Of a stretch of DNA of 64,000 nt, positions 39,074 to 57,255 are shown one piece after another. Both the position numbers and the translations under genes were made by a program. The first letter of the stretch is position 1. The number at the start of each line of letters is the position of its first letter. Below the pieces are notes generated by a model that worked only from the letters and a program-made list of their open reading frames with translations, searched no databases and was not told where the DNA came from. Origin of the DNA: Alphaproteobacteria bacterium (GTDB lineage Bacteria; Pseudomonadota; Alphaproteobacteria; RF32; CAG-239); contig SUUZ01000006.1 in NCBI GenBank assembly GCA_015062235.1, positions 11,258 to 75,257 of the forward strand, read 5' to 3'.

Positions 39074-39766
39074 TTGAAAATGGTTTTAAGTAATGTTGAT
39101 GATGAAATGATACCATACGTTGAGTTTGCTGATAACGCAAACGAGCGCACCCCTTGTGTTTTGGTTTTGGATTGTTCTGGATCAATGAGGGGAGAACCAA
39201 TAAAGCAGCTTAATATTGGGTTGAAGGCGTTAGAACAAGAATTAAAAGATGATATTGATGCGTCATCGAGAGTTCAGTTGCTTATAATTAAGGCTTTTGG
39301 AAAAGATGAGGCGGTTATTTCTTCAGACTGGATTGATGCTATGAATTTTGAGGCGCCAGAAATGGAAGCAGGGGGATTGACGCCTTTGGGCAAGGCTATG
39401 GAGCTTGCTTTGAAAAAAATAGAAGAACAAAAATGTCTTTATGATAGTTGCGGAATAACATCTAAGCGACCATGGATATTTTTAATAAGCGATGGTGAAC
39501 CAACAGATTATGATTGGGAAATTATTGCGAAAAAATGTAGGATAGCACAGCAAAATAAAAAAGTTGTTATTCATGCTGTGGGAACGCAAGGTGCAAATTT
39601 AGATAAACTAGCTTTATTTTCAACGAATCCTCCAAAAAGATTGAGTGGTTTGAGGTTTACTGAATTTTTCTTATGGCTTAGTCGAAGTGTTTCTTGTGTT
39701 TCAAGAGCCGCTCCAAATGCTTTGGGTTTGCTTGAAGATACAGGCGATTGGAATGAAGAAGAATAG
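39074..39766 (+). CDS. von Willebrand factor A domain protein (TerY-like)
   Basis: MIDAS motif VLDCSGSMRGEPI. First gene of a three-gene vWA / PP2C / kinase operon. Confidence 0.7.
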   Translation: MKMVLSNVDDEMIPYVEFADNANERTPCVLVLDCSGSMRGEPIKQLNIGLKALEQELKDDIDASSRVQLLIIKAFGKDEAVISSDWIDAMNFEAPEMEAGGLTPLGKAMELALKKIEEQKCLYDSCGITSKRPWIFLISDGEPTDYDWEIIAKKCRIAQQNKKVVIHAVGTQGANLDKLALFSTNPPKRLSGLRFTEFFLWLSRSVSCVSRAAPNALGLLEDTGDWNEEE

Positions 39767-40499
39767 TTGTAAAAAACCTAAGTTTATTGCCGCTAGTGTT
39801 GCAGGGCAACTTCATGTTAGTAAAAAAATACCTTGTCAGGATTTTTATCAGTATGCTGTAGGACGTAATATTGTTGCTGTAGTTTCAGATGGAGCAGGAT
39901 CTGCAAAGCATGGTAGAATAGGAGCAAGGATTTTATGTTCTACTATTTGTGATTTGCTGAAAAATAGTAGTTTTGATAAAATAGAAGATAAAGTTATTCA
40001 AGCAATCAGGGTTATTAGACAAAAGCTGTTATTTCATAGGTTTAATAAAACCAAAGATGAATTAGGTCTTTCATCGTTTGCGGCAACATTAGTTGGAGTT
40101 GTCTACAACAGAGGACGGGGTGTTTTTTTTCATATTGGGGATGGAGCAGCAATATCGTTAGGCAAAGCGTATGATTTTGTGGCATCAAGGCCTGAAAATG
40201 GAAATTTTTCTTGTGAAACTTTCTTTTTTACGCAATTAGCATGGAGAGAAAACTTAAGATTTACAAAATTTTCAAAAGCATCAAGTATTTTGTTAATGTC
40301 TGATGGTTTAACTTCATTTGCTTTTCAACCAGATTTTTTAGATGTTGAATACAAGTTTATTAAACCTATAAATGATTTTCTGTTATCAGAGAAAAGTGTT
40401 GTTAGAGCTCGTAGGGCACTAGTTAATACACTTAATACTCCTAAAGCTCAAAAATTAAACCCTGATGATAAAACGCTTGTTTGGATTGGAGCGTTATAG
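39753..40499 (+). CDS. PP2C-family Ser/Thr protein phosphatase
   Basis: AVVSDGAGSAKHGRIGA, HIGDGAAI and LLMSDGL motifs. Start set at ATG 39753, overlapping the upstream gene end. Confidence 0.7.
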   Translation: MKKNSCKKPKFIAASVAGQLHVSKKIPCQDFYQYAVGRNIVAVVSDGAGSAKHGRIGARILCSTICDLLKNSSFDKIEDKVIQAIRVIRQKLLFHRFNKTKDELGLSSFAATLVGVVYNRGRGVFFHIGDGAAISLGKAYDFVASRPENGNFSCETFFFTQLAWRENLRFTKFSKASSILLMSDGLTSFAFQPDFLDVEYKFIKPINDFLLSEKSVVRARRALVNTLNTPKAQKLNPDDKTLVWIGAL

Positions 40500-41954
40500 A
40501 TGGAGGAAAAAAGACAGACATTTAACGCTGTTTATCCTGATGGTTCTTTTGGAAAGATAACGCTCGGTAAAATGGTGAACAAAGGGGGAGCTTCAGGTAA
40601 AATTTATTTGGTTGAGGGGCGTCCAGAAAGTGTAGTTAAAATTTTTCATAATATTGAGAAATCAGCTACAAATAGAAAGAAACTTCAAGCAATGCTATTA
40701 AATAAACCTAATTTTCAGCCTGTAGAAGCAAAAGGTATAGAATATATTCAAATAGCGTGGCCTGAAGCATTGTTGGATGATGAAAAGGGGTTTTGTGTTG
40801 GATATATGATGCCGCTTATAAATATGGATAAAGCTGTGTCACTGGATCATCTTATGCAAAAAGCTGTTAGAAAAAAATTAGGACTTTCAGAAAAATATGC
40901 TTATAGGATTTTTGCAGCATATAATGTTGCTTCGATGGTTGCTGCGTTACATAAATGTGGGCATTATATTATAGATTTAAAGCCTTCTAACTTATCAGTA
41001 TATAAAGAGAATATGCTGGTTGCTATGGTTGATTGCGATGGTTTTTCGATTAAAGGTGAAAAAAATAGGTACCCTGCAGAGTTTGTTTCAGAAGAATATA
41101 TTTATCCTGAAGGGATGACACAATCTTGTGAAGAAATGGGAGAAGAACAGGATAGATTTGCGCTAGCTGTGATTGTTTTTCGATTGCTTAACAATGGTAT
41201 TCACCCTTTTTCTGGGGTACCTAAAAGTGTTAACGCAGATATGTTGACCATACAAGGAAGAATTGAGCAATATCACTATGCTTATGGGTTGTGGCCAGAT
41301 AGGTATCAAAGCCCCCATCCATATAGTATACATGAGTATTTTAGTAAAGAAACGTTGGAGCTTTTTGAAAGGGCTTTTACTAAAGGATGTCAAAGGCCAT
41401 CTGCTTATGAGTGGCAAGAACATTTATGGAAATTGATGCATAGTTTGAAATCGTGTAAAGAAAATAGTAATCATGTTTTTTTTACATCAAAAGGATGTGG
41501 TTTATGTTCTGTAGAGAGTAAATTTAATAAAAAATTGAGTGTTATAAAAAAACAACGGATAGAACCAGAAAAAATTAGAGGAATAGAAGTAACACGATTG
41601 TTACCAGAAAACGTTAAAGAGGAAAAGAAAAGAAAATATGCTTATAATGTAAAAATGCAGAAAATTTTTTGGTCTTTTATTTTTGTATATATGCTATTTT
41701 TTGCTTTGCTTTTTAAATTATTGATGCCCTTTAAGGTTTTTTTTAGTAAAATAGGCATAGGTGTTCAGTTTTTGGTTATGGTGTTTTTTTTAATTTTTCT
41801 AGACAGTATGTTAAGAAAATATTCCAAACACTTCAGTTTGCTACAAAACAAAATTATTCGTGATATGTTGCGGGTATACGCCTTTATTTGGATGTTGGTA
41901 ACAATAGTGTTGATAAATGATTTACCAAAAAATTTGTTTGAACTAGCTCCTTAG
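40500..41954 (+). CDS. Hanks-type Ser/Thr protein kinase with C-terminal transmembrane segments
   Basis: Gly-rich loop NKGGASGKIYL. Beta-3 Lys VVKIF. Catalytic loop IIDLKPSNL. DFG-like DCDGF. C-terminal TM helices. Start codon abuts the PP2C stop. Confidence 0.8.
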   Translation: MEEKRQTFNAVYPDGSFGKITLGKMVNKGGASGKIYLVEGRPESVVKIFHNIEKSATNRKKLQAMLLNKPNFQPVEAKGIEYIQIAWPEALLDDEKGFCVGYMMPLINMDKAVSLDHLMQKAVRKKLGLSEKYAYRIFAAYNVASMVAALHKCGHYIIDLKPSNLSVYKENMLVAMVDCDGFSIKGEKNRYPAEFVSEEYIYPEGMTQSCEEMGEEQDRFALAVIVFRLLNNGIHPFSGVPKSVNADMLTIQGRIEQYHYAYGLWPDRYQSPHPYSIHEYFSKETLELFERAFTKGCQRPSAYEWQEHLWKLMHSLKSCKENSNHVFFTSKGCGLCSVESKFNKKLSVIKKQRIEPEKIRGIEVTRLLPENVKEEKKRKYAYNVKMQKIFWSFIFVYMLFFALLFKLLMPFKVFFSKIGIGVQFLVMVFFLIFLDSMLRKYSKHFSLLQNKIIRDMLRVYAFIWMLVTIVLINDLPKNLFELAP

Positions 41955-42460
41955 TCTATTATTTCTTCAAGATATATTCCATAAATACTTTGTTTAGGAA
42001 TCCATCCTTCAATATGTTCAAAAGACATTAAACAGAAGTCGTTGTTTGTAGGGCATTTTTTTATTTCTCCAACAACTCCGTCTTCTATTTTTGCTATGAT
42101 TTGAGAACTGTGGTTGCTTCTTTTATATAAATTGTTTTCGCCAGGGGTAATAATTTTGCCAAATCTTTTGGATGTCAGCATTTGTGCTTTTACCCAACTT
42201 TCGGATCCCTGCCAATCTCGTACTCTACGCCAACCTTCAAATTCTGCTATTATTTCTACAGGGGCATGTTTTTGCATATATATCCACTCTATCGGATATT
42301 TTGTACCAGGTCCAGAGCGGGCGTTAATAGGTTGCGTGCGAAGAGATACAAAACGAGGTAAAGCTACAGTTTTCTTAGTTGCTTGAGGAATAACAGCTTG
42401 GGCTACAGCGGCTAAAACAACAATAATACAAATGAAGAAAACAAGTAAGATTCTTTTCAT
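41951..42460 (-). CDS. secreted hypothetical protein (possible SH3b-like repeats)
   Basis: Signal peptide MKRILLVFFICIIVVLAAVAQA. 169 aa. Confidence 0.35.
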   Translation of the reverse strand: MKRILLVFFICIIVVLAAVAQAVIPQATKKTVALPRFVSLRTQPINARSGPGTKYPIEWIYMQKHAPVEIIAEFEGWRRVRDWQGSESWVKAQMLTSKRFGKIITPGENNLYKRSNHSSQIIAKIEDGVVGEIKKCPTNNDFCLMSFEHIEGWIPKQSIYGIYLEEIID

Positions 42461-43665: not shown

Positions 43666-43687
43666 ATATATAAACAATTGTGCGGTG

Positions 43688-43734
<47 letters not shown>

Positions 43735-43809
43735 ATATTTAGAAAAATAGCACATAACATATTGTAATTAGGTAATTTTTTAACAGATTAAAGATTTTAT
43801 AAAAAATGT

Positions 43810-43835
43810 GGTGCCTCAATGGTGCCTCATTTTTT
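43810..43835. repeat. tandem GGTGCCTCA x2 + T-run motif (candidate integrase arm-type/accessory site, left end)
   Basis: GGTGCCTCAATGGTGCCTCATTTTTT. 24/26 match to the copy at 57059-57084, in the same orientation. Confidence 0.5.
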
Positions 43836-44087
43836 AGAAAAAACACCATTTTTTAGATATTAAATTATGGATGAAAATATTTATTTTTTCTCATACCAAG
43901 CACCCTTGGTAGAACCATTTTTAACCAAGAATCCACCATCAACCAATTCTGCTAATGCTTTTTTGTAAAATAAAAATATTTTAAAATTTTTTCATTTTAT
44001 TTTTGCTTTTTCCTAATCAAGTTTGGTAATATACAAATAAAGCAAATAATACTTATTAAACTTAACTATAATTTTATGGGGGTAATT

Positions 44088-44240
44088 ATGAAAGAAAGCA
44101 AACAATTTTTAGAAGAATGGGTAAAGAATTATTCAACAGATAACCAAACAAAAGAATGGTTAAATGAATGGGTTAAAAAAGCATCAGTTGAATCTCAAAC
44201 TAAACAATGGTTAGAAAGTTGGGTTAATTCTTCTAAATAG
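44088..44240 (+). CDS. small repeat peptide (50 aa; below ORF-track threshold) with iterated EWV/EWL motif
   Basis: MKESKQFLEEWVKNYSTDNQTKEWLNEWVKKASVESQTKQWLESWVNSSK. RBS-like GGGGGTAATT upstream. Followed by a terminator hairpin. Confidence 0.3.
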   Translation: MKESKQFLEEWVKNYSTDNQTKEWLNEWVKKASVESQTKQWLESWVNSSK

Positions 44241-44257
44241 CAAATAGTTTCATCATA

Positions 44258-44292
44258 AAAAAGCACAGAATCTCCCACTTCTGTGCTTTTTT
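44258..44292. terminator. bidirectional rho-independent terminator
   Basis: AAAAAAGCACAGA ... TCTGTGCTTTTTT between the convergent small ORF and the 317-aa gene. Confidence 0.55.
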
Positions 44293-45244
44293 ATAATGGA
44301 AATAATCCATAATATTTTAAATTATCTATCAAATCACTAAAAAGTTCATCATTATTTTCAAAATGAAAACCAATACTACTATTAGAATCATAACAAATGA
44401 TTTTACTATTCTGCCTATCAAATGTTATATGTATATTAACAATATCTTCTTTACCTTGTTTAATTACAGCCTCTTGAAGTTTATCCTTGCAAGATGAAAT
44501 GGCATATGCAAGATTATACAATATTTTATCAATAGCAATTGCATATAACATTCTTTTAGTTTCTTGGAATATTTGTGGAGTGCAACTTTTATTATTAACA
44601 ACAATAGGATATATAATCTTGGATTTTCTCATACTTATAATGTCTTGTTTTGCAATTTCTTCTGATAAAGGTATGCCTTTTAAAGAGCAGCCATCTAGTA
44701 GTCCTTGCCAATTTCTATCTAATATATCTAATAAGTCTTTATCTGCAAAATTACTATGATTTCTTACATCTAAAAAAAATACATTATTTCCCCACACATA
44801 TGTAAACAGTAAAAAATTATCATTATATTTTGTTCTTTTATCAAGAGGATGAATATGCAAATGAATTATTCCCCAATCATTTAACATATAGTCATTATAA
44901 GTTAAATGATTAGAATGTGTGCTTAAATATGGTAAAATAGATGAACCTTTTTCAAAGCATTTTTGTATATTATCTATTTTTTTCTTAAATGCTTTATATA
45001 GTTTGGATTTTAATATTTCTTTGGAGTAATATACAGCCTTTTTTCCACAAGGAAGCCTTTGCATATTGTAAATATAACATTTTAACAAGTCTTTATAATC
45101 AGCATCTTTGAGATATTCTTTAGAATGTTTTGTGATTTCTATATTTTGTGTTTTTATAAAATCATTAAATAGTTCAATTAGAAAATCTCTGCAATCTTGC
45201 TTAAAATTATTAAAAATGCTTGTTATATTTACATCATCACTCAT
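44291..45244 (-). CDS. hypothetical protein translationally coupled (ATGA overlap) to Type ISP RM gene
   Basis: 317-aa ORF whose start codon overlaps the stop of the 1613-aa RM gene. No recognisable motifs. Confidence 0.4.
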   Translation of the reverse strand: MSDDVNITSIFNNFKQDCRDFLIELFNDFIKTQNIEITKHSKEYLKDADYKDLLKCYIYNMQRLPCGKKAVYYSKEILKSKLYKAFKKKIDNIQKCFEKGSSILPYLSTHSNHLTYNDYMLNDWGIIHLHIHPLDKRTKYNDNFLLFTYVWGNNVFFLDVRNHSNFADKDLLDILDRNWQGLLDGCSLKGIPLSEEIAKQDIISMRKSKIIYPIVVNNKSCTPQIFQETKRMLYAIAIDKILYNLAYAISSCKDKLQEAVIKQGKEDIVNIHITFDRQNSKIICYDSNSSIGFHFENNDELFSDLIDNLKYYGLFPL

Positions 45245-48200
45245 TTCAAATCCAATTTTGGCAATCTCTTAACAATCTCATTAGTTGCCATACTAACTGT
45301 TATAATGGATAAAATCAAGTCAAGGATATATCTTGGGTTATTGTGTTCCAATCCCCAATCATTAGGGTCATTCTTAATTCCACTATCTTTATCAATCTTA
45401 ACTTGGTATCTATCCATAATCCACTCTATTGCTGATTTACCATTAATAACATAATCATATGCTTCTAATGGAATATTCTCTATTCTGATATATGAATTGT
45501 AAATTAAGGTTGATTTATCAACATCTTTGCCATTTTTGCCAAATGATAGCTTCTCAACATAATATTTTTCACTATCTTCCCCAATAACCTTAACATCTGG
45601 ATATGCTGGAACTGCCTCATAATTTAAGTGAAGTTCTGCTAATTCTCTACCAGCTTTACTAAATGCCCAGAAATCATTAGGAACATCTACAAGAGGTATT
45701 TTTGGCAACATTTTCTTCAAATCTGCTGCAAATTGCTCTCTATAATCTTTGGAATGCAATAAACCATAAACATAATAGAATATATCTTCTTTAACTACTT
45801 TATGACCATATCTTGTTTTGCATTGTTCCAATATAAAATCAGTAATACCATCTCTTCTGATATAATTCTCTTTACCTTGGTCAAATAATGTTCCTATATT
45901 TCCCTTATTTTCTTCATAGTAATATAGTGGGAAACATTGTGAATCACCATTTAAGTGCAAATCAGGTATATGATTTACTATAATTGGAACTCCATTTTTC
46001 ATTGCAGGAAAGCAAATACACACATTTTTATGCTCTGATGTTGGGAATAATTTAGGTATCTGATACATCATTTCATTCAATGGTTTGTATAAAAACAAAT
46101 ATTGTTTATAAAATGGTCTATATACAGCATAAACAATATTACCATCTGAATAATTATATACTTTATTCTTATTTACATCATTTTGAGTTGCTCTTGTCCA
46201 AACTATTTTTGATGGCTCATAAGTAATTTGTAAGGATTTATTATCATTTAACTTATTTCTTTGTTCATTATAAAAATCAATAGTTGTTTTTATATTATTT
46301 TCTAAATCTTTTTTTGATGAATTATAACACCAAGGGTCTCTTTGGGTTTTTAATCCATTTGAATAATATGGAACAAATACAGTTCTAGTATTAGTTTTAT
46401 CATCTTTATCACCAAGAGGTATAAATGAACTAAATAAATCACTTCTTTGATTTAACCAATCATTATGCTCATTAGGTCTTAATGCCTTCCACTCTATTTT
46501 AGAATTATTTATACCCTTAAAATGCTTTAATATCTCTAATTTTTCTGTTCTTTTTAGATAATCACCAATATCATGGTAATAAATTGTTGCTTTTTCATCT
46601 GGATTTTTATTAGGTTTCTTAACAAGAATAGTGATAGCAACACCTGTCATAATATCAAATACATTTTGACCTTCTTTTTGGGCAGCATCTTTGGATTTTC
46701 CTCTAATAGCACCTCTTAAATTAAATATATGAATAGAACTAAACTCTTGTTCTAAACATTGTCTAAACCCATCCATAGAGTTAGATTCAAGCCATCCACC
46801 ATTAGTAATAAAGGCAACTATACCACCATTTTTGTTATCTAATCTATCTGATGACCATCTAAATGCCTTTATATAACTATCATATAAAGCATTTTTATTA
46901 GTGGCTGTTCCCAATTTAGCATAGGTTTCTTCAACTCTACTATCTAATTTAGGATATTTTTGGTTTTGTGCATTATCATTGGCATTTTTCTGACCAACTG
47001 AATATGGTGGATTACCAATAATAATTCTTACTGGTGCTTTCTTTTGTTCAATAACTCTTTCAGAGTTTTGTGGCAACATATCAGAGAATAATTCATCTGC
47101 TTCATCAGATTCTCCTAATTGGAATGTATCTGTTAAGCAAATACCATCAAATGGTTGGTATTCATCTTTAAGTTCCATAATATCATGGTATGCATTTTCT
47201 ATGTTAATAGAGGCAATATAGTAAGCCAATAATACAATCTCATTACAATGTAATTCTTTTGCATACTTATGTGGCAATGCCTTTTTATCAATAAGACCTT
47301 GCTGAATCATTCTTGTAATAAATGTTCCAGTGCCTGTAAATGGGTCTAAAATATGGACATTTTCATCAGATAAACTTCTGTTAAACTCTTTTTTCAATAC
47401 TTGTGCTACTGAATTATTAATAAAATCAACCACTTCAATAGGTGTATATACAATACCTAATTGTTCAACAACTTTTGGGAATGCTGTTTTGAAGAACTTA
47501 TCATATAATTCAACTATAATCTTTTGCTTACCTTCTGCATTATCAATGCCTTCAACCCTTTCTTTTACTGATTCATAGAACTTATTTAAGGTTTCAGCAT
47601 CTTTATCCATTGCTTGTTCTTCAAGTAAATCAATCATTTTCTGTAATGATTTAGATACTGCATTGTTTTGAACAAATGAATAATTCTCAAATAATGCCTC
47701 AAATACTGGTTGTGTTATAAGATGTTGTGCTAACATCTGTATAACTTCATCTTTGGATACAGATGGGTTAATATTCTTTTGTAAACCCTTTAATAAGCTA
47801 TCAAATGCTTTTTTATGCTTACCTTCTGTTGCAATAAGTAAGTTAATTCTCTCAATATATCTTTGTGCAATCTGTGCAACATCTTGTGCCCATTGGACCC
47901 AATATCTCTTATTTCCAACCTTTTGCACCATTTTAGCATAAATTGCATTTTGCAACTGGTCTATTTCAGGTAGTGGTAATGCTAATTGGGTGCTTTCTGT
48001 TGATGATGTTGTTGTATCACCATCAGAATCTGTTGCTTTACTGCCAATTCCACCAACAATAATCTTGTTATTCTTCTTTTTATTCAAATCAATCTTATTG
48101 ATTTCAGCATTAAATCTATCATCATGGGCTCTTAAAGCATTAAGGACTGTCCAAACAACCTTATATCTCTCATTATCATCCAATGCTTCTTCTGGCTTTA

Positions 48201-50082
48201 CACCTGATGGAACAACAATAGGAATAATTATATAGCCATATTTCTTATTAGGTGCTGTTCTCATAACTCTACCAACTGATTGCACCACATCAACTTGGCT
48301 ATTCTTGGCAGATAAGAACATAACAGCATCAAGTGATGGAACATCAACACCTTCTGATAAACACTTAACATTGGTCAATATATGACATTCATTGCTATCT
48401 TTTGGTGCATTTTTTAACCAAGATAACAATTCATCTCTTTGGCTTGCACCCATTGTTCCATCAATATGCTTTGATTCAACACCAACTAATTGGCTTCTTT
48501 CTTCTTGGGTTAAACTATCATAATAAGCATCTTTATGGTTATTAAACATTCCACTTATTTTTTGTGAAACTTTAATATTTTGGCAGAATGCAACTGCTTT
48601 TGTCATAGGTGATTTATCATCATTGAATGCTTCATCTGTTGATAAAACCCTTTTAGACAAAGCATTTATACAACCAATTAACTTACTAATATCATCTGTA
48701 TTGATTTCATTGCTCTTGTCTGAAATAACATTTTGTAATGCTGTTGGAATCTGTTCTTCTTTTAAGGTTAAAATCAATACCTTATAATCTGCTAATAGAT
48801 TTTTTGATACTGCTTCACCAAATCCAATTCTATACATTTCTTGTCCATAGATGCTTTCATCATCCATTGAACACAATATTGCATCATTTTCTTGGGCTTT
48901 TTGCTTACTTGCATCTGTATATAATCTTGGGGTTGCAGTCATATACATTCTTTTTTTAGCAACAATACAGTCATTATTATGGACCTTTGTAAATGATGCT
49001 TCTTCTTTATCTTTTAATACAACACCAGTAGTTCTATGGGCTTCATCACAAATTACCAAATCAAATATACAAGAATCCTTTTGTCTTTTATTGATGGCTT
49101 CTTGGGCTTTGGATATAACATCAATTGATTGATATGTAGAGAATACAACAATCATTCTATCTTTATGTTGCTGTTTTGCTAACTCATATTGATGAATAAT
49201 ATTAGGAACATTGGTTGATGCAGGTAATGCCAAATCAACCACACTCATATCATCATTGTCTGTTTTTTTGGTAATTGCTGGGTCAGAACAAATACAAATA
49301 GGATAAATTGGCTTTTCTGATTCAGCACACCATTCTCTTAATGTCTGCCCTAATAATGCTATTGATGGAACTAAAAATAGCACCAATCCACTTCCATTGG
49401 TTTCTTTTTCAGCAATTTTTAAGGATGTATAGGTCTTACCACAACCACAAGCCATTATTAACTTGCCTCTATCATTGCCTTTAAAATGCTCATTTACATT
49501 AGAAATTGCTTTATTTTGGTGGTCTCTTGGTGTTTTTTTCTGTTTTCTTGCTGATTTTCCTTCTTCTCCATTTACCAATTTATCCCAATCAACATTAGAG
49601 TTCTCTAAATCTGTTAAACTAATTCTGATAAGTGGTGGATTCTGATTTTTTATTGTATTTTCTGCTTCACCATTCCAATGGTTAGTAGTTGAAATCCATA
49701 ATCTTTGGCTAAATTGGACTGTCTCCATATTTTCATTATAAAAACTCTTGCTTGATGTAGATAAAAAACTATCAACACCAGCTTTATCAATGTAAGCATT
49801 TTCCTCATAGCATTTACATTGAACTGCCCAATAATCACCCTCAACTGTCTGTGCAACTAAATCAATTCCAGTATCTTTACCACTGAAATCTTTTCTATAT
49901 GGAAACTCATTCCATAGCCATATCTGCTTGAATCTTCCTTCATATGTTGGTTCTGACAACATATACTTCTTCATTAAGAGCTCAAATCTTGCACCCTTAT
50001 CTCTTTCAGAGAATGCTTCTCTTCTAAACTTTTTTAATACATCACTGAATGATAATATTGGTGTGGTCATATTGCTCTCCAT
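45241..50082 (-). CDS. Type ISP restriction-modification enzyme (Mrr-like nuclease + SF2 helicase-like ATPase + gamma-class N6-adenine methyltransferase + TRD, single polypeptide; LlaGI/LlaBIII-like)
   Basis: N-terminal PD-(D/E)xK-like IDLVAQTVEGDYWAVQCK. Helicase motif I ACGCGKT, motif II ICDEAHRTTG, motif VI QSVGRVMR. MTase motif I DPFTGTGTF and motif IV NPPY. Long C-terminal specificity region. 1613 aa. Confidence 0.85.
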   Translation of the reverse strand: MESNMTTPILSFSDVLKKFRREAFSERDKGARFELLMKKYMLSEPTYEGRFKQIWLWNEFPYRKDFSGKDTGIDLVAQTVEGDYWAVQCKCYEENAYIDKAGVDSFLSTSSKSFYNENMETVQFSQRLWISTTNHWNGEAENTIKNQNPPLIRISLTDLENSNVDWDKLVNGEEGKSARKQKKTPRDHQNKAISNVNEHFKGNDRGKLIMACGCGKTYTSLKIAEKETNGSGLVLFLVPSIALLGQTLREWCAESEKPIYPICICSDPAITKKTDNDDMSVVDLALPASTNVPNIIHQYELAKQQHKDRMIVVFSTYQSIDVISKAQEAINKRQKDSCIFDLVICDEAHRTTGVVLKDKEEASFTKVHNNDCIVAKKRMYMTATPRLYTDASKQKAQENDAILCSMDDESIYGQEMYRIGFGEAVSKNLLADYKVLILTLKEEQIPTALQNVISDKSNEINTDDISKLIGCINALSKRVLSTDEAFNDDKSPMTKAVAFCQNIKVSQKISGMFNNHKDAYYDSLTQEERSQLVGVESKHIDGTMGASQRDELLSWLKNAPKDSNECHILTNVKCLSEGVDVPSLDAVMFLSAKNSQVDVVQSVGRVMRTAPNKKYGYIIIPIVVPSGVKPEEALDDNERYKVVWTVLNALRAHDDRFNAEINKIDLNKKKNNKIIVGGIGSKATDSDGDTTTSSTESTQLALPLPEIDQLQNAIYAKMVQKVGNKRYWVQWAQDVAQIAQRYIERINLLIATEGKHKKAFDSLLKGLQKNINPSVSKDEVIQMLAQHLITQPVFEALFENYSFVQNNAVSKSLQKMIDLLEEQAMDKDAETLNKFYESVKERVEGIDNAEGKQKIIVELYDKFFKTAFPKVVEQLGIVYTPIEVVDFINNSVAQVLKKEFNRSLSDENVHILDPFTGTGTFITRMIQQGLIDKKALPHKYAKELHCNEIVLLAYYIASINIENAYHDIMELKDEYQPFDGICLTDTFQLGESDEADELFSDMLPQNSERVIEQKKAPVRIIIGNPPYSVGQKNANDNAQNQKYPKLDSRVEETYAKLGTATNKNALYDSYIKAFRWSSDRLDNKNGGIVAFITNGGWLESNSMDGFRQCLEQEFSSIHIFNLRGAIRGKSKDAAQKEGQNVFDIMTGVAITILVKKPNKNPDEKATIYYHDIGDYLKRTEKLEILKHFKGINNSKIEWKALRPNEHNDWLNQRSDLFSSFIPLGDKDDKTNTRTVFVPYYSNGLKTQRDPWCYNSSKKDLENNIKTTIDFYNEQRNKLNDNKSLQITYEPSKIVWTRATQNDVNKNKVYNYSDGNIVYAVYRPFYKQYLFLYKPLNEMMYQIPKLFPTSEHKNVCICFPAMKNGVPIIVNHIPDLHLNGDSQCFPLYYYEENKGNIGTLFDQGKENYIRRDGITDFILEQCKTRYGHKVVKEDIFYYVYGLLHSKDYREQFAADLKKMLPKIPLVDVPNDFWAFSKAGRELAELHLNYEAVPAYPDVKVIGEDSEKYYVEKLSFGKNGKDVDKSTLIYNSYIRIENIPLEAYDYVINGKSAIEWIMDRYQVKIDKDSGIKNDPNDWGLEHNNPRYILDLILSIITVSMATNEIVKRLPKLDLK

Positions 50083-50257
50083 AATTGCCCATTTATGGAG
50101 AGCTAAAAATACTAATCAGTTTTTATTTTATTATAACCTATTGCAGCCCTTCTATCTCCAACAATTCTGTGAGTTTAGAGTCCTTTTTTATTTAAATTTT
50201 AATATTTTATCCTTATTCTCAACCTATATAATCTAAATGGGCATCTATTTTATATAT

Positions 50258-50288
50258 CTTTGATAAATAAATATACTATTTATCAAAG
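50258..50288. promoter_or_regulatory. 12-bp perfect inverted repeat CTTTGATAAATA-N7-TATTTATCAAAG immediately upstream of serine recombinase start
   Basis: Palindrome ends 9 bp before the ATG at 50298 and overlaps the RBS. Candidate operator or recombinase site. Confidence 0.4.
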
Positions 50289-50297
50289 GATTATATA

Positions 50298-50900
50298 ATG
50301 ATTTATGGATACATTAGGGTCAGTTCAGACCAGCAAAATTGTGCTAACCAAAGATTTGAATTGGACAATTATGCTGCTAAAAATAAAATAAAAATCAATG
50401 AATATATAGAAGAGACCATATCTTCAAGAAAACATCTAAAAGATAGGAAATTAGGTAAATTACTGGATAAAATTGGTAAAGATGATGTTGTAATTACTAC
50501 TGAAATATCAAGATTAGGTAGGAATATGCTTGAAGTAATGGGTATTCTTCAACAATGTTTAGAGAAAGAATGTGAAATAATCACAATTAAAGAAAATTAC
50601 CATCTTGGTGCTGATATTCAGTCAAAAGTGCTTGCTTTTGCTTTCAGTTTAGCAGCAGAAATTGAAAGACAACTTATCTCCCAAAGAACCAAAGAATGCC
50701 TAAAAAGATTAAAAAATGAAGGTAAACATTTAGGAAGACCATATGGATTTACTTATAAAAAATTAAAAAAGAAGCATAATAAAATAAAAGAACTATTGGA
50801 TAAAAATGTATCAAAAGCAGAAATAGCAAGACTTATGGGATGCACTTGGACCACACTTCATAGATACATAAATGAATATATAAAAAATAAAGAACCATAG
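50298..50900 (+). CDS. serine recombinase (resolvase/invertase family) with C-terminal HTH
   Basis: N-terminal catalytic MIYGYIRVSSDQQ (Ser nucleophile) and SRLGRN. C-terminal HTH MGCTWTTLHRYI. 200 aa. Confidence 0.85.
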   Translation: MIYGYIRVSSDQQNCANQRFELDNYAAKNKIKINEYIEETISSRKHLKDRKLGKLLDKIGKDDVVITTEISRLGRNMLEVMGILQQCLEKECEIITIKENYHLGADIQSKVLAFAFSLAAEIERQLISQRTKECLKRLKNEGKHLGRPYGFTYKKLKKKHNKIKELLDKNVSKAEIARLMGCTWTTLHRYINEYIKNKEP

Positions 50901-50937
50901 ATTTCTCTATGATTCTTCTTATGAAATTAAATGATTT
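50868..50937. repeat. 70-bp direct repeat copy A (includes last 11 codons + stop of recombinase gene and an internal CATAGA-N4-TCTATG palindrome)
   Basis: Identical 70-mer at 52343-52412. Together they bracket the Fic gene and its upstream repeat array. Confidence 0.75.
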
Positions 50938-50957
50938 GTTCTATATATTTCTCTTTT

Positions 50958-52061
50958 TTAAAAATTATTATTACCCTCAACAATATTCAGCAAATTAGCA
51001 AAAACATATGTTGTTGGTCTTTGTCCTGCACCTTTTTTATGAACCTTCAAAATATCAGCATCAACCAACTTAGATAAAATGTTATTACAGGTAGCCTTGT
51101 TATTAATTTTAACATCTTTTAATAATTTTGTTGTGGTTATAAATGGACTTTCAAATAAAGAATCACAAATAGCAGTTGAATGATATGAATGGGTAATAGA
51201 TGGAATTTTTTCTTTAACCAAATCATATAGTTCTAATATTTTCTTTGCTCTTTGTGTATTAGTCTCTGACTGAATAATCACAGCATTCAAAAAGAACTCA
51301 ACCCAAGACTGCCAATCTCCTTCAACTGATATTTTATTGAGTTTATTATAATATTCCCCTCTATTATTTTCTAAATATTCACTTAAGTAAAAAACAGGAG
51401 ACCTCAAATAATTTTTGGAATATAAGAATAAAGGAATAAGGATTCTTCCCATTCTTCCATTTCCATCATTAAAAGGGTGAATAATTTCAAACTGAGAATG
51501 CAAAATGGCTAATTGAACCAATGTTTCCTCATCTTCTTTATGCATATATTTTTCAAAATTATCCAAAGCAGGAAGCATATCAACATATTGAGGAGGAACA
51601 TATCTAGCATTTTCTATTGTATCACCTGCTGCACCAATAAAAACATCTGTTGTTCTAAATTCTCCTCTATTTTTATTATGACCTCTAACACCAGCCAATA
51701 ATCTAAAATGAATATCCTTCAACATATTTAAGCAAAGAGGTCTTTGAGTTAAATCCTCAGTAGCAAAGGCTAAAGCATTTCTATAATTGTTAATTTCCTC
51801 AATATCATTTTCTTTTTCTTGGTCATATTTTTCACCCAAATCTTTTTGATAAATATCTGATAAAGATGCCCTTGTTCCTTCAATTTTAGAAGACAAAACA
51901 GCCTCTTGTTTGGTTAAGGGGGATAAAAGAATTTTAGGATTTACCATATTATGTAAAATTCCATTATAATTAGATAGTTTGGCATTTGCTTTGCCAATTA
52001 GTGGTGCTAATGCTTGCCAATCTAGACCACTAATGGGTAATTTATCTGGAATAAAATACAT
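50958..52061 (-). CDS. Fic-domain protein (AMPylator/Fic-DOC family), class II with N-terminal inhibitory motif
   Basis: Fic motif HPFNDGNGRMGRIL. N-terminal inhibitory-helix motif SSKIEG ([ST]xxxE[GN]). 367 aa. Confidence 0.9.
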   Translation of the reverse strand: MYFIPDKLPISGLDWQALAPLIGKANAKLSNYNGILHNMVNPKILLSPLTKQEAVLSSKIEGTRASLSDIYQKDLGEKYDQEKENDIEEINNYRNALAFATEDLTQRPLCLNMLKDIHFRLLAGVRGHNKNRGEFRTTDVFIGAAGDTIENARYVPPQYVDMLPALDNFEKYMHKEDEETLVQLAILHSQFEIIHPFNDGNGRMGRILIPLFLYSKNYLRSPVFYLSEYLENNRGEYYNKLNKISVEGDWQSWVEFFLNAVIIQSETNTQRAKKILELYDLVKEKIPSITHSYHSTAICDSLFESPFITTTKLLKDVKINNKATCNNILSKLVDADILKVHKKGAGQRPTTYVFANLLNIVEGNNNF

Positions 52062-52342
52062 CTTAACCTCTTTGTTTGAAATTTATACACACTTTATTTT
52101 ACATAATATACATTGTGTAAAATTTAAAAGCAATATATTTTACACAAATTTATTTGTATAAAACCTGTTATTCACAAAACAATTTGTGTAAAATATTTAA
52201 GAGGTAAGTTATACACAAAACATTTTGTGTATAATAAAATTGACACTAAATTATTTGTGTATAAAAAAATCAAAAAATTTTTACACAAATACAAGTGTGC
52301 AGAATTCTCATTTCTGTTTATTTCTATAAAATTCAACAAGAT
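52062..52342. repeat. iteron-like array: at least 7 copies of TTTGTGTA(A/T)AA / TTTTACACAAA in both orientations incl. palindrome TATACACAAAA-CA-TTTTGTGTATA
   Basis: Copies read directly at about 52113, 52138, 52158, 52178, 52190, 52220, 52232, 52255 and 52285. AT-rich. Lies upstream of Fic and inside the 70-bp-DR-bounded cassette. Confidence 0.6.
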
Positions 52343-52412
52343 ATAAATGAATATATAAAAAATAAAGAACCATAGATTTCTCTATGATTCTTCTTATGAA
52401 ATTAAATGATTT
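52343..52412. repeat. 70-bp direct repeat copy B
   Basis: Identical to 50868-50937. Confidence 0.75.
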
Positions 52413-52466
52413 ATTATACATAATAATAAAAAGGGCTCATAATTGCCCTAAATTGCTTTATTTTAA

Positions 52467-53189
52467 TTACAATTCCATCATTTCCTTATGTGTAACATAT
52501 TTGTTTTCTATTTCATCTAATAGTAAAATCATTGCATTACTATCAACAATTCTTGCTAAATCTTGACAATCTAAATTAACAATAGGTATTGGACATACTG
52601 TGCTTCCATTATAGTAATTTAACAAACTTGTTAAATACTGCCATTTGTTGAACACTGTAATGTGGGTAGCAAGAATGCCATAATTATCTGGCAGACTATT
52701 TATATTTGCTCCTTTTTCTAATAGATATTCAACTAAATAGGTATCATTCTTTCTCAATGCTAATATTAGGGCACTTTCACCTAAATCATTAGTAGCATCA
52801 ATATCTTCCCCCTTATCTAATAGGACATCTATAACAATTTTTTTATCAAACTTACATATTTTTGGATTTGCTACCACTGCCATCAATAATGTGTAGTTAT
52901 TCTTATGTTTCTTTTGGATATTTAAAATATCAATCTCTGGCAGAAGTCTTGTATAATTTTCTTCTTCTAAAAATAATCTAAATAAATCATCATTACCCAT
53001 AATTGGGTAGAATTGTTGCAATAATTGCTCTTCTGTTATGAAGGACAATCTATTAATTAATTTTTGAATATATTTGGCATTAGGGGACATAAGGAATGAA
53101 GGTATTGTCTCCTTATAAACTGATTTGAATAAATCAATTATTTCTTTTTTTGTAATACCACTAAAATCAACTTTATTACTATTATCCAT
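52467..53189 (-). CDS. ankyrin-repeat protein
   Basis: At least 2-3 ANK repeats: DATNDLGESALILALRKNDTYLVEYLLEKGANINS. 240 aa. Confidence 0.7.
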   Translation of the reverse strand: MDNSNKVDFSGITKKEIIDLFKSVYKETIPSFLMSPNAKYIQKLINRLSFITEEQLLQQFYPIMGNDDLFRLFLEEENYTRLLPEIDILNIQKKHKNNYTLLMAVVANPKICKFDKKIVIDVLLDKGEDIDATNDLGESALILALRKNDTYLVEYLLEKGANINSLPDNYGILATHITVFNKWQYLTSLLNYYNGSTVCPIPIVNLDCQDLARIVDSNAMILLLDEIENKYVTHKEMMEL

Positions 53190-53226
53190 TGTAGTTCCTT
53201 TTATTATAATAATATTTATTCAATTC

Positions 53227-54165
53227 CTAATATGAATTGGCAAATAATACATCTTGTTTATTGTAGATTTTGGATATCTTATTGTAAAAATCCATTCCTA
53301 ATAACTGCTTTTTCTCATCTGTTATGTCTTCTTTTATTGAATATGAATAAATGCCATCATTTTTAACTTTACCTAATTCAATATCTAATTTGGGATATTT
53401 GGGATTTAGATAGGTAAGGGAATAAAATATTATTTCACCTGTTTTTTTATCTATATGTTCCTTCTTTTTTGCCAAATTATGTTGGGGGAACTTACATATT
53501 TCTTTATCTATTCCTTTATTTTTACAATATATGATGCCATCAACATTTTCTAAATCATTACATTCTATTGTATCATAATGATTTTTATGAAGATTTAAAA
53601 GATTATAAAATATAAAATCTTTTAGTTCTTTTGCTTCATCATCTGTTACATCAATTAGTAGATGATAATGGGTATGTTCTTCTACATCCCTAACTTTCCC
53701 ATTTTCTTCAAATAAGAAGAATTTAGGTATTTTATCTAATTTCTTATACCATCTTTTACCTAATTTATTGCTGTAATAGAATCTCAATATATTATGTAAT
53801 TCATTGAATAATTGATTTTCTTCATTCCAAGTTTTAGGATTTATTGATATAAATTGGGGATTTGTCATCAATTGATGTATTGTATCAGTTGTTGTTTCCA
53901 ATTTTGGAAGTGATTTATCTTGCTCTCTTATTTTAAAATTTATTTCATTCACTAATGAATTAAAATTATATTCATCAATTGCTTTTAATTCAGTTATGTA
54001 ATTTGAATCAATAAATTGATATTTCTTTAATTGTTCAATATTTCTATCTTTAATTGCTTTAAATGACAGATTTAATTTGTTTAATCTTTTGATTTTATTA
54101 TAAAAATCAATTTGTTTTAATTCTCTTGCTGTATATTTTGTTCCTACAATATTACTCATAATCAC
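53227..54165 (-). CDS. hypothetical protein with possible HUH-endonuclease-like motifs (HTHYHLLI ... IIYCKNK)
   Basis: His-hydrophobic-His motif at about residue 165 and a Tyr/Lys motif about 40 aa downstream, as in rolling-circle Rep/relaxase proteins. Otherwise unassignable. Confidence 0.3.
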   Translation of the reverse strand: MIMSNIVGTKYTARELKQIDFYNKIKRLNKLNLSFKAIKDRNIEQLKKYQFIDSNYITELKAIDEYNFNSLVNEINFKIREQDKSLPKLETTTDTIHQLMTNPQFISINPKTWNEENQLFNELHNILRFYYSNKLGKRWYKKLDKIPKFFLFEENGKVRDVEEHTHYHLLIDVTDDEAKELKDFIFYNLLNLHKNHYDTIECNDLENVDGIIYCKNKGIDKEICKFPQHNLAKKKEHIDKKTGEIIFYSLTYLNPKYPKLDIELGKVKNDGIYSYSIKEDITDEKKQLLGMDFYNKISKIYNKQDVLFANSY

Positions 54166-54415
54166 TCCTAATAATTAAGTATAAAAAGAACAACAGAAGG
54201 TTTTACCTCTGTTTTTTCACTCTCAATAATGTGGATTTACCTACATTATCTTACTGATTTTGAAATCAAATGGGTGTGTCCTAAATCTATTTATTAGAAT
54301 ACCATTCCATCTTGGAATTTTTAAAAATTAAAATTTTAAAATCTAAAAATAATTATTTTGACTTTTGCTTAACTTGTTGGAAATCAATAAAAAGTGATAA
54401 ATAGATATAATTACT

Positions 54416-54793
54416 ATGGGGAATTATATGAATATAATAGAAAGCATCCAACAACAGAACCAATTAAGGAAGATAAAAAAAGAAGTTAATAGAATTGCAC
54501 TGCCTAATAAGGCAATTGCTTTTTTAAAAAAATGTTATGGATTAGTTGCTGATGAATTGAAACTAATTGAATCTCAATATGAGTTTAGCAGGCAGATAAT
54601 GAATACTAATCAATTTTATTATGCTAAAATGATTTGTGAAGGCAAATCACCTTCTATATCTTGTATCTCCACAATTGTTGAGAATATTAAGACATTAAAA
54701 GAATTACCTAACCTAAATAAAAGTATATTGAAGCAAATTGATGCTTTATATGATGAAGGGCAACAAATTATATATCAGAAATTGTTGAAGTGA
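54416..54793 (+). CDS. hypothetical protein (125 aa)
   Basis: ORF with RBS-like sequence. No motifs. Confidence 0.3.
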   Translation: MGNYMNIIESIQQQNQLRKIKKEVNRIALPNKAIAFLKKCYGLVADELKLIESQYEFSRQIMNTNQFYYAKMICEGKSPSISCISTIVENIKTLKELPNLNKSILKQIDALYDEGQQIIYQKLLK

Positions 54794-54883
54794 TAAAAAT
54801 TGATGAACTCAATATCTTTTTTATAATAAAATAAGTTTTATCTTGCCTTTTTTATTTTTGAACTATAAACATAGTTAAGGTAT

Positions 54884-54960
54884 ACTGGTGTAGCTCATCT
54901 GGATAGAGCACAGGTTTCCTAAACCTGGGGTAGGGGGTTCAAGTCCCCCCACTAGTGCCA
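54884..54960 (+). tRNA. tRNA-Arg (anticodon CCT), intact, island-borne
   Basis: Manual cloverleaf: acceptor ACTGGTG/CACTAGT. D-arm GCTC-ATCTGGATA-GAGC. Anticodon arm CAGGT-TTCCTAA-ACCTG. T-arm GGGGG-TTCAAGT-CCCCC. Encoded CCA. 77 nt. Confidence 0.88.
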
Positions 54961-55899
54961 GTTTCTGTGTTTTATCTGATGTGTTGCCTCATATTCTTCT
55001 ATATCTTTTAACTTATAAAATACTTTGCTACCTATTTTAATATAGTTAGGACCTTCCCTTCTGACTCTCCATCCCATTAGGGTATTTTCTTTCATATTCC
55101 AGTAATCTGCCAATTCTTTGGTGGTCAGCATATCTTTTTCAATTTTTTGAGAATCTGATTGTTTTACCTTTACATCATTGGTAATAATTTTAATTCCATT
55201 GCTGTCCTTATGTTGTAATTGTAGTTTTTCAATTTCATTAGCATATAGGTCAAATTTTGAGTTTTTTAGTGAATTTTTGAATATTTCCAAGCATTTTATG
55301 AAATCTTGCTTGTGTTTTCCTTTGAAATCAATATTCAACATTTCAAACTTTTCACCAAATATTGTCTTTGTCATCCAGAATAAATTATGGAAAATAGAAT
55401 CCTTAATACAACTGTTCATATTCCAATCTCTTCCATAGAAAGATACTTCATCTTTGAACTCTGTGTTATAGAATTGGAGTCCCTTATCATCATTGTGGTG
55501 TTTTGTTTCTTCTATATCACATCTAAATGTTGCTTCTTTATAAAAGATAACTCTATCAAATACTGTGTTTTTATTAAAAATAGAATCCTTGAAAAAGACA
55601 GAATCCTTAAACTTTATGTCTTTAAATTTTAAATATGTTTTGAATGATGTATTACTAAAATTGACAATATCATTAAAATCACAGTTATTAAATGATAGGG
55701 ATGAGGTGATTTTTAATTCATTTCCTTCAATTTTACCAAACTTACAGTTATCAAACTTTGTATTTTTTGTTTCTAATAATAGAATCTCTACCAATTCACT
55801 ATTATCTGCTTGTGTAAAGTCAATATCCTTAAAATTAGCAATTTTTTGCTGAATAAACTTCTCTTGATTAAAGTGTGTCTCTCTTTTGTATTTTCTCAT
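54952..55899 (-). CDS. Xis/AlpA-like HTH (excisionase-family) protein with N-terminal Phe-rich 5-6-residue tandem repeat domain
   Basis: C-terminal LTTKELADYWNMKENTLMGWRVRREGPNYIKIGSKVFY matches the excisionase/MerR-like HTH. N-terminal region has F at 5/6-residue intervals (beta-solenoid-like). Stop overlaps the tRNA 3' end. Confidence 0.5.
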   Translation of the reverse strand: MRKYKRETHFNQEKFIQQKIANFKDIDFTQADNSELVEILLLETKNTKFDNCKFGKIEGNELKITSSLSFNNCDFNDIVNFSNTSFKTYLKFKDIKFKDSVFFKDSIFNKNTVFDRVIFYKEATFRCDIEETKHHNDDKGLQFYNTEFKDEVSFYGRDWNMNSCIKDSIFHNLFWMTKTIFGEKFEMLNIDFKGKHKQDFIKCLEIFKNSLKNSKFDLYANEIEKLQLQHKDSNGIKIITNDVKVKQSDSQKIEKDMLTTKELADYWNMKENTLMGWRVRREGPNYIKIGSKVFYKLKDIEEYEATHQIKHRNWH

Positions 55900-55903
55900 A
55901 TTA

Positions 55904-57046
55904 CTATCCTATCATCTTCTTAACTGTGTCATTTAGTGTTTCTCTTAGTTGCTCAACATCAAGGTTCACATAAATCTGTGTGCTTTGAATATTAGAATGA
56001 GTTAGTGCTTTTTTCACTTGGAAAGCATTGGCACCATATGAGACCATATATGTTGCCAATGTATGTCTTAAATCATGGAGGTGTAAATTAGTAATTTCTG
56101 CTTGGGTTAATATAGATTTCCAAGTTCCTCTAACCTCTGTGATATGCCCTGTTTTAGATTCAGTTGAGAAGAATACATATTCATTGTATTTTGTTTCTGC
56201 TAATCTTTTTAATATTTTAACAGCACTATCTACCAAGGCAACAGACATATTTTTGCCTGTTTTTGTTTCTGGGATTACCCAAGTTTTACTTTCCAAATCC
56301 ACATCTTGCCATCTCATAGAAAATACATTGCTTCTCCTTGCTCCTGTCATCAATAGCAACCAAATAGCATCTTTGGATATAGAATCTGGATAATTATTGA
56401 TGACCTCAACAAACTTTTCCATTTCTTTTTTGGTTAAATACCTAATTCTTGGGGATTCTTTATTCAACTGAACTGGAACTACTGGGTTTCTGCCATCATA
56501 AAGGTTTCCTTTAATGAAATAATTAAAGATGGTTTTGGAAAATACAATAGAATGATTGGCACACCTTTTACCATTATTAGTGGTGATTTTTTTATGTAAT
56601 TTTTTGAAATCATCAGTGGTTAATTGAGATATTTTCTTGTTTCCAAGAACATTTAAATAGTTTTTCCATAGTCCTTTATAACCATCAATAGTTCTTGGTT
56701 TTAGGTGTTGTTCTTTTTCCTCTATGAATTTTTCATACATAACTTTAAAAGAATCCTCTTGATTTAATTTCTTCTTTTCAGCAATAGGATTCTTGCCTGA
56801 ATTCAACATAATTTTAGTTTTTCTTGCCTCATTTCTTGCTTCATCAACACTCATAAATGATGGTTCACCAAGTTTTACTCTTATCTGATTACCAAGAACT
56901 CTACCTCTTAAATAATAACTTTTATTACCACTTGGAGTTAATAGAAGGGATAAACCTTTCTCTTCTGTGTCATAAACATAGACCCTTTTATTTTGAGGTT
57001 TCAGATTCTTAATATTAGCATTAGTAAACTTGAACTTGTTGCTCAT
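55904..57046 (-). CDS. int: tyrosine recombinase, P4-type integrase
   Basis: N-terminal arm-binding domain (FTNANIKNLKPQNKRVYVYDTEEKGLSLLLTPSGNKSYYLR). C-terminal catalytic HDLRHT...Y motifs. 380 aa. Confidence 0.9.
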   Translation of the reverse strand: MSNKFKFTNANIKNLKPQNKRVYVYDTEEKGLSLLLTPSGNKSYYLRGRVLGNQIRVKLGEPSFMSVDEARNEARKTKIMLNSGKNPIAEKKKLNQEDSFKVMYEKFIEEKEQHLKPRTIDGYKGLWKNYLNVLGNKKISQLTTDDFKKLHKKITTNNGKRCANHSIVFSKTIFNYFIKGNLYDGRNPVVPVQLNKESPRIRYLTKKEMEKFVEVINNYPDSISKDAIWLLLMTGARRSNVFSMRWQDVDLESKTWVIPETKTGKNMSVALVDSAVKILKRLAETKYNEYVFFSTESKTGHITEVRGTWKSILTQAEITNLHLHDLRHTLATYMVSYGANAFQVKKALTHSNIQSTQIYVNLDVEQLRETLNDTVKKMIG

Positions 57047-57058
57047 CTATACCCCCTT

Positions 57059-57084
57059 GGTGCCTCATTGGTGCCTCACTTTTT
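57059..57084. repeat. tandem GGTGCCTCA x2 + T-run motif (right-end copy, 13 bp upstream of int start codon)
   Basis: GGTGCCTCATTGGTGCCTCACTTTTT. Matches 43810-43835. Confidence 0.5.
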
Positions 57085-57205
57085 ATCAATTTTGATAAAT
57101 TTAAATCAATACACAAGAAAAATAAAATGCTTGATTTTTATTGAAATACAGTATATTAAGAAGAATATTGGGTGTCAATGAAAAAGATAAAAAACCTTGC
57201 TTCCA

Positions 57206-57255
57206 CAGTTTCCTAAACTGTGGGTAGGAGGTTCGAGTCCTCTCACTGGCGCCAT
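57206..57255 (+). pseudogene. 3' portion (anticodon arm to CCA) of the disrupted host tRNA-Arg(CCT); includes right 20-bp direct repeat (57206-57225)
   Basis: ACAGT-TTCCTAA-ACTGT-GGGTA-GGAGG-TTCGAGT-CCTCT-CACTGGC-G-CCA. Followed by a strong terminator. Confidence 0.7.

Follow-up and report, generated by a model that had tools for sequence, protein, structure and literature searches.

A 64,000-nt window of contig SUUZ01000006.1 (positions 11,258 to 75,257), from a low-GC alphaproteobacterial metagenome-assembled genome (MAG), carries a complete Type ISP restriction-modification (RM) gene whose stop codon overlaps the start codon of a 317-aa gene of the PD-T4-7 anti-phage family. We propose that the pair probably constitutes a two-layer defence operon, in which RM is combined with abortive infection (Abi), and that it is carried by a modular mobile island. 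The two defence proteins would be made from one message and would act independently of each other, a mechanism that we also consider likely. Both genes belong to known families; their combination is new and was found in one lineage. The 317-aa gene occupies a position at which close relatives of the RM gene carry unrelated genes.

The RM enzyme and the protein encoded behind it

Both open reading frames (ORFs) are on the minus strand, at the coordinates given in the original prediction, which was made from the letters of the window. The 1613-aa ORF (45241..50082) is, by its sequence, a complete and intact Type ISP enzyme. Pfam domains follow one another in the order Mrr_cat_2 (Mrr-like nuclease, 49561-49956), ResIII (48925-49536), Helicase_C (48256-48612), ISP_coupler (47530-47904), an Eco57I-type methyltransferase (MTase) domain of the gamma class, specific for N6-adenine (46726-47367), and Type_ISP_C, the target-recognition domain (TRD, 45316-46374). 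The PADLOC model REase_MTase_IIG matches the protein with 2237 bits, and residues 12-1612 align with residues 15-1576 of LlaBIII (PDB 4xqk; phmmer, E=0); LlaGI (5ffj) was also matched. We located TGIDLVA and VQCK (the D...QxK motif of the nuclease), GCGKT, DEAH, QSVGRVMR, DPFTGTGTF and NPPY. The Type ISP architecture that had been predicted is thus borne out, with both the nuclease and the MTase intact in the motif check and the alignment. By analogy with LlaGI and LlaBIII, the enzyme would methylate an asymmetric site on one of its strands, translocate on unmodified DNA with ATP and cleave upon the collision of two enzymes. Within the TRD, a segment of ~315 bp (45941-46255) has no detectable DNA homology to one related locus (L036; L numbers denote the loci that were compared), while the rest of the ISP gene is 88-91% identical. 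This mismatch suggests that TRDs have been swapped and that the recognition sites differ.

The 317-aa gene (44291..45244, minus strand) begins within the end of the ISP gene. The junction reads ...TTG AAA TGA, the ATG being at 45244-45242, so that the TGA of the ISP gene shares bases with the ATG in an ATGA overlap (45241..45244, minus strand), as had been noticed before. The start codon is supported by homologues, which align from residue 1. Neither Pfam nor NCBIfam gave a match for the protein, and the original prediction had found no recognisable domain in it. PADLOC does recognize it: the PD-T4-7 model PDLC04066 matches with E=1.1e-26 (aa 47-300 against profile positions 34-306 of 337) and a second PD-T4-7 model, PDLC04065, with E=2.1e-21. 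On these profile matches the 317-aa protein is a member of the PD-T4-7 family. PD-T4-7 was discovered by functional selection in Escherichia coli (UMB0103) as a single, 'RelE toxin-like' gene that confers Abi against T4 (Vassallo et al. 2022); phage protection is on record for this founder only. The system is grouped with the abortive-infection systems that resemble toxin-antitoxin (TA) systems, and the preprint adds a phage-sheath-like region (Vassallo et al.).

An exhaustive HMMER search collected 1468 cluster representatives of the PD-like family at E<=1e-3, 253 of them at E<=1e-10. Nearly all are 280-340 aa long (mostly 290-310 aa), which indicates standalone proteins. A 352-aa relative, P0041, which like the 353-aa member P0058 was considered as a possible E. 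coli founder, is ~27% identical to the 317-aa protein. In a 76-sequence family alignment D118, D123, W124, G125, H130, H163 and R206 are invariant and N122 and H128 nearly so; the 317-aa ORF is intact, of full length and keeps all the invariant residues. A tblastn search of phage genomes gave no match to the protein, and a search of PDB sequences with the family profile returned a spurious designed repeat protein as its sole match, hence no PDB sequence relative.

Structure prediction, which had been suggested as a check, was run with AlphaFold2 on the 76-sequence alignment and gave a confident model (predicted local distance difference test, pLDDT, 89.5; predicted template-modelling score, pTM, 0.86). 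The model comprises an N-terminal helical region (45050-45244), a core of aa ~68-180 (44705-45043) and a C-terminal alpha/beta domain (44312-44605), all on the minus strand. Strand, helices, three strands and a helix succeed one another in the core, from which we infer a topology like that of the RelE superfamily. The best Foldseek match in the PDB, YafQ (9lew_B; probability 0.98, target TM 0.61), is not significant (E=0.065). It is followed by the toxins HigB, RelE, YoeB and ParE, the ribosome-dependent RNase Cami1 and a tail-sheath protein. RelE-superfamily toxins thus dominate the list of matches to the model, and their recovery together with a tail sheath independently echoes the published annotation of PD-T4-7 as RelE plus a sheath-like region.

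At 24.3%, the GC content of the 317-aa gene is below the 30.9% of the ISP gene (at third codon positions, GC3, 14.5% versus 19.5%), consistent with an origin separate from that of the ISP gene. The ORF could be a passenger, captured recently as a cassette and now without expression or activity. The difference in GC content would fit a separate and possibly recent acquisition, and the pairing of the two genes occurs only in contigs that are 100% identical. We nevertheless regard this as very unlikely, given an intact ORF with the family's invariant residues, a confidently predicted fold, a protein that does not vary among 22 contigs from several samples, and a start codon placed for coupled translation.

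A variable position behind Type ISP genes

ISP proteins 88-97% identical to that of the window are common, and the left-hand context of these close relatives is kept (DUF6626, ankyrin, divergent resolvase, ISP). What follows the ISP gene is not. In three lineages (L027-L035) the position is taken by a 459-aa PIF1/RecD-like helicase gene that starts 2 nt past the ISP stop, and in a fourth (L036-L038) by the gene of a 239-aa protein plus a PIN protein gene. An ApeA_NTD1 protein is encoded there in L124, where the ISP protein is 72% identical, and a DUF4238 protein in L127.

The boundaries of this slot are sharp. Window DNA is ~93% identical to L027 and L030 through the resolvase and ISP genes, and the homology ends at window position 45245, one base before the ATG; the ATGA overlap is thus the left boundary. 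Homology resumes for 35 nt at 44294-44258, in the stop codon of the cargo gene and the hairpin that follows it. This terminator hairpin (44250..44298, minus strand), located by RNA folding and alignment, forms the right boundary. Its core, AGCACAGAA-loop-TTCTGTGCT at 44262-44287, is followed by a T-run, and the predicted RNA fold has -26.9 kcal/mol (z=-8.6). The hairpin AAAAGCACAGAA-loop-TTCTGTGCTTTTTT occurs once in the window, stands directly 3' of the 459-aa PIF1-like gene in L027-L031 and is not present at standalone PD loci. Since homology breaks at the ISP stop and resumes at the hairpin, exchange has been ORF for ORF, from the stop codon to the shared terminator. Cargo that arrives without an upstream region of its own must draw its expression from ISP-derived signals, which would fit translational coupling. 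The presumed promoter region of the ISP-plus-cargo operon is the divergent resolvase-ISP intergenic region (50083..50297), placed there from the gene layout; a consensus promoter scan, which found fewer sites than in shuffled controls in this AT-rich DNA, was uninformative.

Convergent with the 317-aa gene, and with the bidirectional terminator in common, is a 54-aa ORF (44076-44240, plus strand). It has three Trp-rich repeats, QTK(E/Q)WL..WV, matches no family and is among the gene calls of every identical contig.

How the cargo is exchanged was considered in the light of these boundaries. Small serine recombinases might swap or invert the cargo site-specifically at the hairpin and short repeats, as a programmed variation. 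In every related island the ISP module is flanked by small resolvase genes, and such genes also accompany PD-like genes. The hairpin loop is reverse-complemented in L027 (12217-12241) relative to L030 (9160-9185) and the window, and the downstream (second) resolvase is on the minus strand in L027 and on the plus strand in L036; the flipped loop and the change in resolvase orientation hint at inversions with a breakpoint in or at the hairpin. Moreover, the second resolvase and a module with a SoFic gene, itself flanked by 91-nt repeats (see below), shift in orientation or position between islands. However, we found no convincing inverted repeats or invertible promoter bracketing the cargo or in the resolvase-ISP intergenic region. 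Standalone PD loci are without the hairpin, and the left boundary falls within 5 kb of ISP sequence that is ~90% identical, in which ordinary homologous recombination would suffice. Site-specific exchange therefore seems to us rather unlikely.

A survey of more distant Type ISP loci, comprising 80 further loci from metagenomes and four representatives (84 in all), gave a similar picture. We counted co-oriented ORFs of >=100 aa starting within 30 nt of the ISP stop, in those 72 metagenome loci that have >=500 nt past it. Such a tightly linked ORF is present in 24 of these 72 diverse loci, and inclusion of the four representatives and one short locus raises the number of ORFs to 28, in 19 unrelated sequence clusters. 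They encode, among others, SIR2 (E=3e-118), PDC-S19/DUF3644 (8e-120) and PDC-M71A protein kinase (1e-116) proteins, an LmuB-like ATPase, an integrase and several unknowns. Thus, a linked downstream gene is common behind Type ISP genes, rather than unexpected as had been thought, and its identity is highly variable. In the same 84 loci the PD-family hidden Markov model (HMM) found no PD-like gene within 5-6 kb. Among the ISP-adjoining ORFs of L052, L065, L074, L078, L114 and L118 are those of 311, 345, 611, 824 and 275 aa without a Pfam or PADLOC match; in L052 a 679-aa ORF is behind the ISP gene and its LmuB-like match is only weak.

These comparisons also bear on a role in the RM reaction itself. 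As an accessory subunit or regulator, the 317-aa protein would be needed by the ISP enzyme or would modulate it, for instance as a specificity factor, a loader or a controller. Tight genetic coupling is what such a role would predict, yet the ISP protein has all the domains and motifs of the self-sufficient enzymes LlaBIII and LlaGI, near-identical ISPs do without the 317-aa gene, ISPs that are 72-97% identical are followed by unrelated slot genes, and the family, of which no member was found within 5-6 kb in the 84 other loci, is overwhelmingly a standalone one. Nor was any helix-turn-helix (HTH), DNA-binding or controller-like feature detected in the protein with Pfam, NCBIfam or the AlphaFold model. 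A subunit or regulator is therefore extremely improbable, and the lack of an HTH or controller-like feature leaves the anti-restriction control that had been suggested alongside it without support.

Contexts of the family and mode of action

The stop/start coupling of ISP and 317-aa genes occurs only on contigs that are 100% identical to the window (L004-L011). The closest non-identical relatives of the 317-aa protein are only 41-48% identical to it and are encoded in other contexts. A divergent small resolvase gene and then the PD-like gene are found in integrase-bearing elements on contigs without an RM gene (L001, L002) and again in L126-L128; in L012 the resolvase is downstream. In L130 and L131 the PD-like gene is 19 nt behind a Y-family polymerase gene, and neither L130 nor the plasmid copies have RM genes nearby. 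More distant relatives, in 15 genomes and 5 plasmids, are located among miscellaneous defence, TA and mobile genes, and none of them adjoins a Type ISP gene. The PD-like family is thus overwhelmingly standalone.

Two further island lineages combine the families. In L124 and L127 a Type ISP gene is present in the same island, and several genes separate it from the PD-like gene, which forms a unit of its own 5.6-5.8 kb downstream. L126 and L127 share their right-hand island (pentapeptide-repeat protein, AAA_14/DUF4143, resolvase, PD-like gene), whereas on the left L126 has Type I RM (HsdS, AAA_13, HsdR) and L127 Type ISP followed by DUF4238 and DUF5677, so that RM modules, too, have been exchanged. 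Another RM-adjacent context for the family was seen in L026 (2687-8732), where a distant PD-T4-7-like gene (242 aa) is downstream of a Type III mod/res pair, with an 89-aa ORF between and a primase/VapE-like gene after it.

We propose the following model. The Type ISP enzyme would be the first-line barrier, based on DNA modification, and the 317-aa protein a back-up effector, probably a RelE-like, translation-targeting RNase that depends on His, Asp and Arg residues, if the predicted fold is a guide. The RNase core may be held autoinhibited by the N- and C-terminal domains and freed during infection. Expression of the 317-aa protein would proceed by read-through and termination-reinitiation on the ISP message, and an Abi-type effector would thereby be tied to the first-line RM enzyme.

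A different wiring, like that of PrrC and EcoprrI, would make the ISP enzyme a guardian: it would bind and silence the RelE-like protein until a phage anti-restriction protein puts the enzyme out of action, upon which the freed toxin would abort the infection; translational coupling would set the stoichiometry of the complex. Interacting partners typically show such an overlap of stop and start codons, guardian wiring is an accepted concept for PrrC and PARIS, and effector-like genes (SIR2, kinase, PIN, ApeA) are tightly linked to the ISP gene at many loci. PD-like genes also co-reside with ISPs in L124 and L127, but there they form a separate unit behind other genes. For PD-T4-7, moreover, protection by one cloned gene on its own is reported, and the family is mostly standalone, also where no RM gene is nearby (L001, L130, plasmid copies). 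Unrelated cargo behind ISPs that are 88-97% identical implies no co-adapted interface, and the effector is not jointly conserved with the RM partner, since the coupling is confined to one lineage. On balance we consider a guarded toxin unlikely.

An extension of this wiring would make the 3' position of Type ISP genes a dedicated effector slot, into which RelE-like PD-T4-7, SIR2, PIN, ApeA/HEPN, kinase and PIF1-like helicase genes are plugged ORF-precisely between the RM stop and a shared terminator, the cargo being co-translated, guarded by the ISP enzyme and set off once phage anti-restriction proteins inactivate it, and the flanking small serine recombinases perhaps driving the exchange. 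We hold this to be distinctly doubtful. If it were true, Type ISP enzymes would be general platforms for interchangeable guardians.

Several points weigh against the two-layer model with independent proteins. Membership in the PD-T4-7 family was assigned through the PADLOC family HMMs only. No PDB match to the model of the 317-aa protein reached E<=0.001 in Foldseek (best 0.065), and hhalign comparison of the family profile with single E. coli YafQ and RelE sequences gave <1% probability; RelE homology at the sequence level is therefore not claimed. Tight coupling would also be expected of an interacting pair, and the independence of the two proteins is suggested by the variability of the slot only. 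The co-residence of PD-like and ISP genes in two other island lineages (L124, L127) may reflect some functional affinity.

The suggestion that the 317-aa protein is an Abi-like partner fares best among the three that had been put forward: 'Abi-like' agrees with membership in the PD-T4-7 family, but a dedicated partnership does not agree with an interchangeable slot gene. The original prediction would have been undone by a lack of conserved association with Type ISP genes elsewhere, and such a lack is largely what we find (no PD-like gene within 5-6 kb in 84 loci, coupling in identical contigs only), apart from the co-residence in L124 and L127.

The mobile island and its relation to known systems

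The two genes are carried by an element of 13,471 bp (43734-57204) between exact 20-bp direct repeats. The left attachment (att) repeat, ACAGTTTCCTAAACTGTGGG (43714..43733, plus strand), is at the end of the 5' fragment of a split host tRNA-Arg(CCT), and the identical right repeat (57205..57224, plus strand) is at the start of its 3' fragment. The repeats correspond to the anticodon stem-loop of this tRNA, and in-silico joining of the host fragments yields a perfect tRNA-Arg(cct) (ARAGORN). An intact, element-borne tRNA-Arg(CCT) (54884..54960, plus strand; ARAGORN), which has compensatory differences from the host fragments in the anticodon stem, replaces the disrupted host copy. A tRNA-like repeat at 43667-43727, paired with this intact tRNA at 54884, was considered as the island boundary and dropped in view of the matching 3' fragment at 57205. 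The element has 27.9% GC and its flanks 32.9%.

A tyrosine integrase gene (55904..57046, minus strand; Pfam Phage_integrase 7e-33 and Arm-DNA-bind_3) adjoins the gene of an Xis-like HTH_17/pentapeptide-repeat protein (54952..55899, minus strand; Pfam). Divergent from the ISP gene, a 200-aa small serine recombinase of the resolvase/invertase type is encoded at 50298..50900 (plus strand; Pfam Resolvase 1e-32 and HTH_7); resolvase and ISP genes form a conserved block in related islands, co-linear with L027, L030, L033 and L036. The third defence gene of the island is a SoFic-type Fic gene (50958..52061, minus strand; PADLOC SoFic E=2e-107, Pfam Fic_N and Fic). It is flanked by 91-nt direct repeats (50857-50947 and 52332-52422, 91% identical), the first of which reaches into the 3' end of the resolvase gene and contains a terminator hairpin. 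This second slot holds an SNase gene in L030 and is empty in L027; L036 has the SoFic module at another place and in the opposite orientation. Also on the element are an ankyrin protein gene, a DUF6626-like gene and a 312-aa unknown.

Just upstream of the SoFic start, at 52093-52270, are a 72-nt imperfect palindrome and four copies of a ~35-nt motif (ACACAAA...TTTGTGT), which look like putative operator sites of some regulator. Just outside the element, three overlapping genes at 39074-41954 form an operon for a vWA-domain protein, a PP2C phosphatase and a protein kinase, which could be a signalling or conflict system. The gene of an SH3-domain protein (41951-42460) comes after this operon, and a 666-aa protein with a weak kinase match is encoded upstream (35126-37126).

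Defence-island hotspots with exchangeable cargo are known, for example the P2/P4 hotspots and those of integrative and conjugative elements (ICEs). The island of the window resembles them in its conserved flanks, in the alternative defence genes between these and in being an integrative element. Unlike them, it has part of a defence gene, the 3' end, as its left flank, and exchange is ORF-precise, so that the cargo would inherit the transcription and translation signals of the RM gene.

With LlaBIII and LlaGI the ISP protein has in common its domain order, homology over the full length and all catalytic motifs; what sets it apart is its origin in a low-GC alphaproteobacterial MAG, its diverged TRD and the stop/start-coupled defence gene. 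The 317-aa protein, likewise, matches both PD-T4-7 HMMs over nearly their full length and is of similar size (317 versus 352 aa). It is a distant member of the family and is encoded by the second gene of an operon, coupled to RM, so that the difference is one of locus architecture and not of homology.

Linkage of RM genes to Abi or toxin genes is an established pattern, as in PrrC-EcoprrI, PARIS and the 'RM+Abi' system PD-lambda-5 (Makarova et al. 2012; PMC12707154). In PrrC-EcoprrI, the anticodon nuclease PrrC is encoded inside a Type Ic locus and is known to be under the control of the RM complex. Common to these loci and the window would be an RNA-targeting, suicide-type effector, here one predicted from the model, in or beside an RM locus, and with it layered immunity. 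In contrast to PrrC-EcoprrI, the RM system of the window is Type ISP and the effector probably RelE-like, and the variable slot speaks against a fixed partnership. In the literature that we searched, we came across neither a Type ISP gene with a stop/start-coupled PD-T4-7 homologue nor an ORF-precise variable slot behind Type ISP genes.

The annotation of the locus is thus corrected: the 'domain-less partner' is a member of a known anti-phage family, its pairing with the ISP gene is lineage-specific, and it does not amount to a new subunit of Type ISP enzymes. The comparative lead is the more useful one. Known and unknown defence effectors have repeatedly come to occupy the highly variable +1 position of Type ISP genes, and slot ORFs of 239, 275, 311, 345, 611 and 824 aa are, by their position, candidate new defence genes. 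One RM backbone with different downstream effectors provides a natural test case for an Abi effector that is co-translated with RM.

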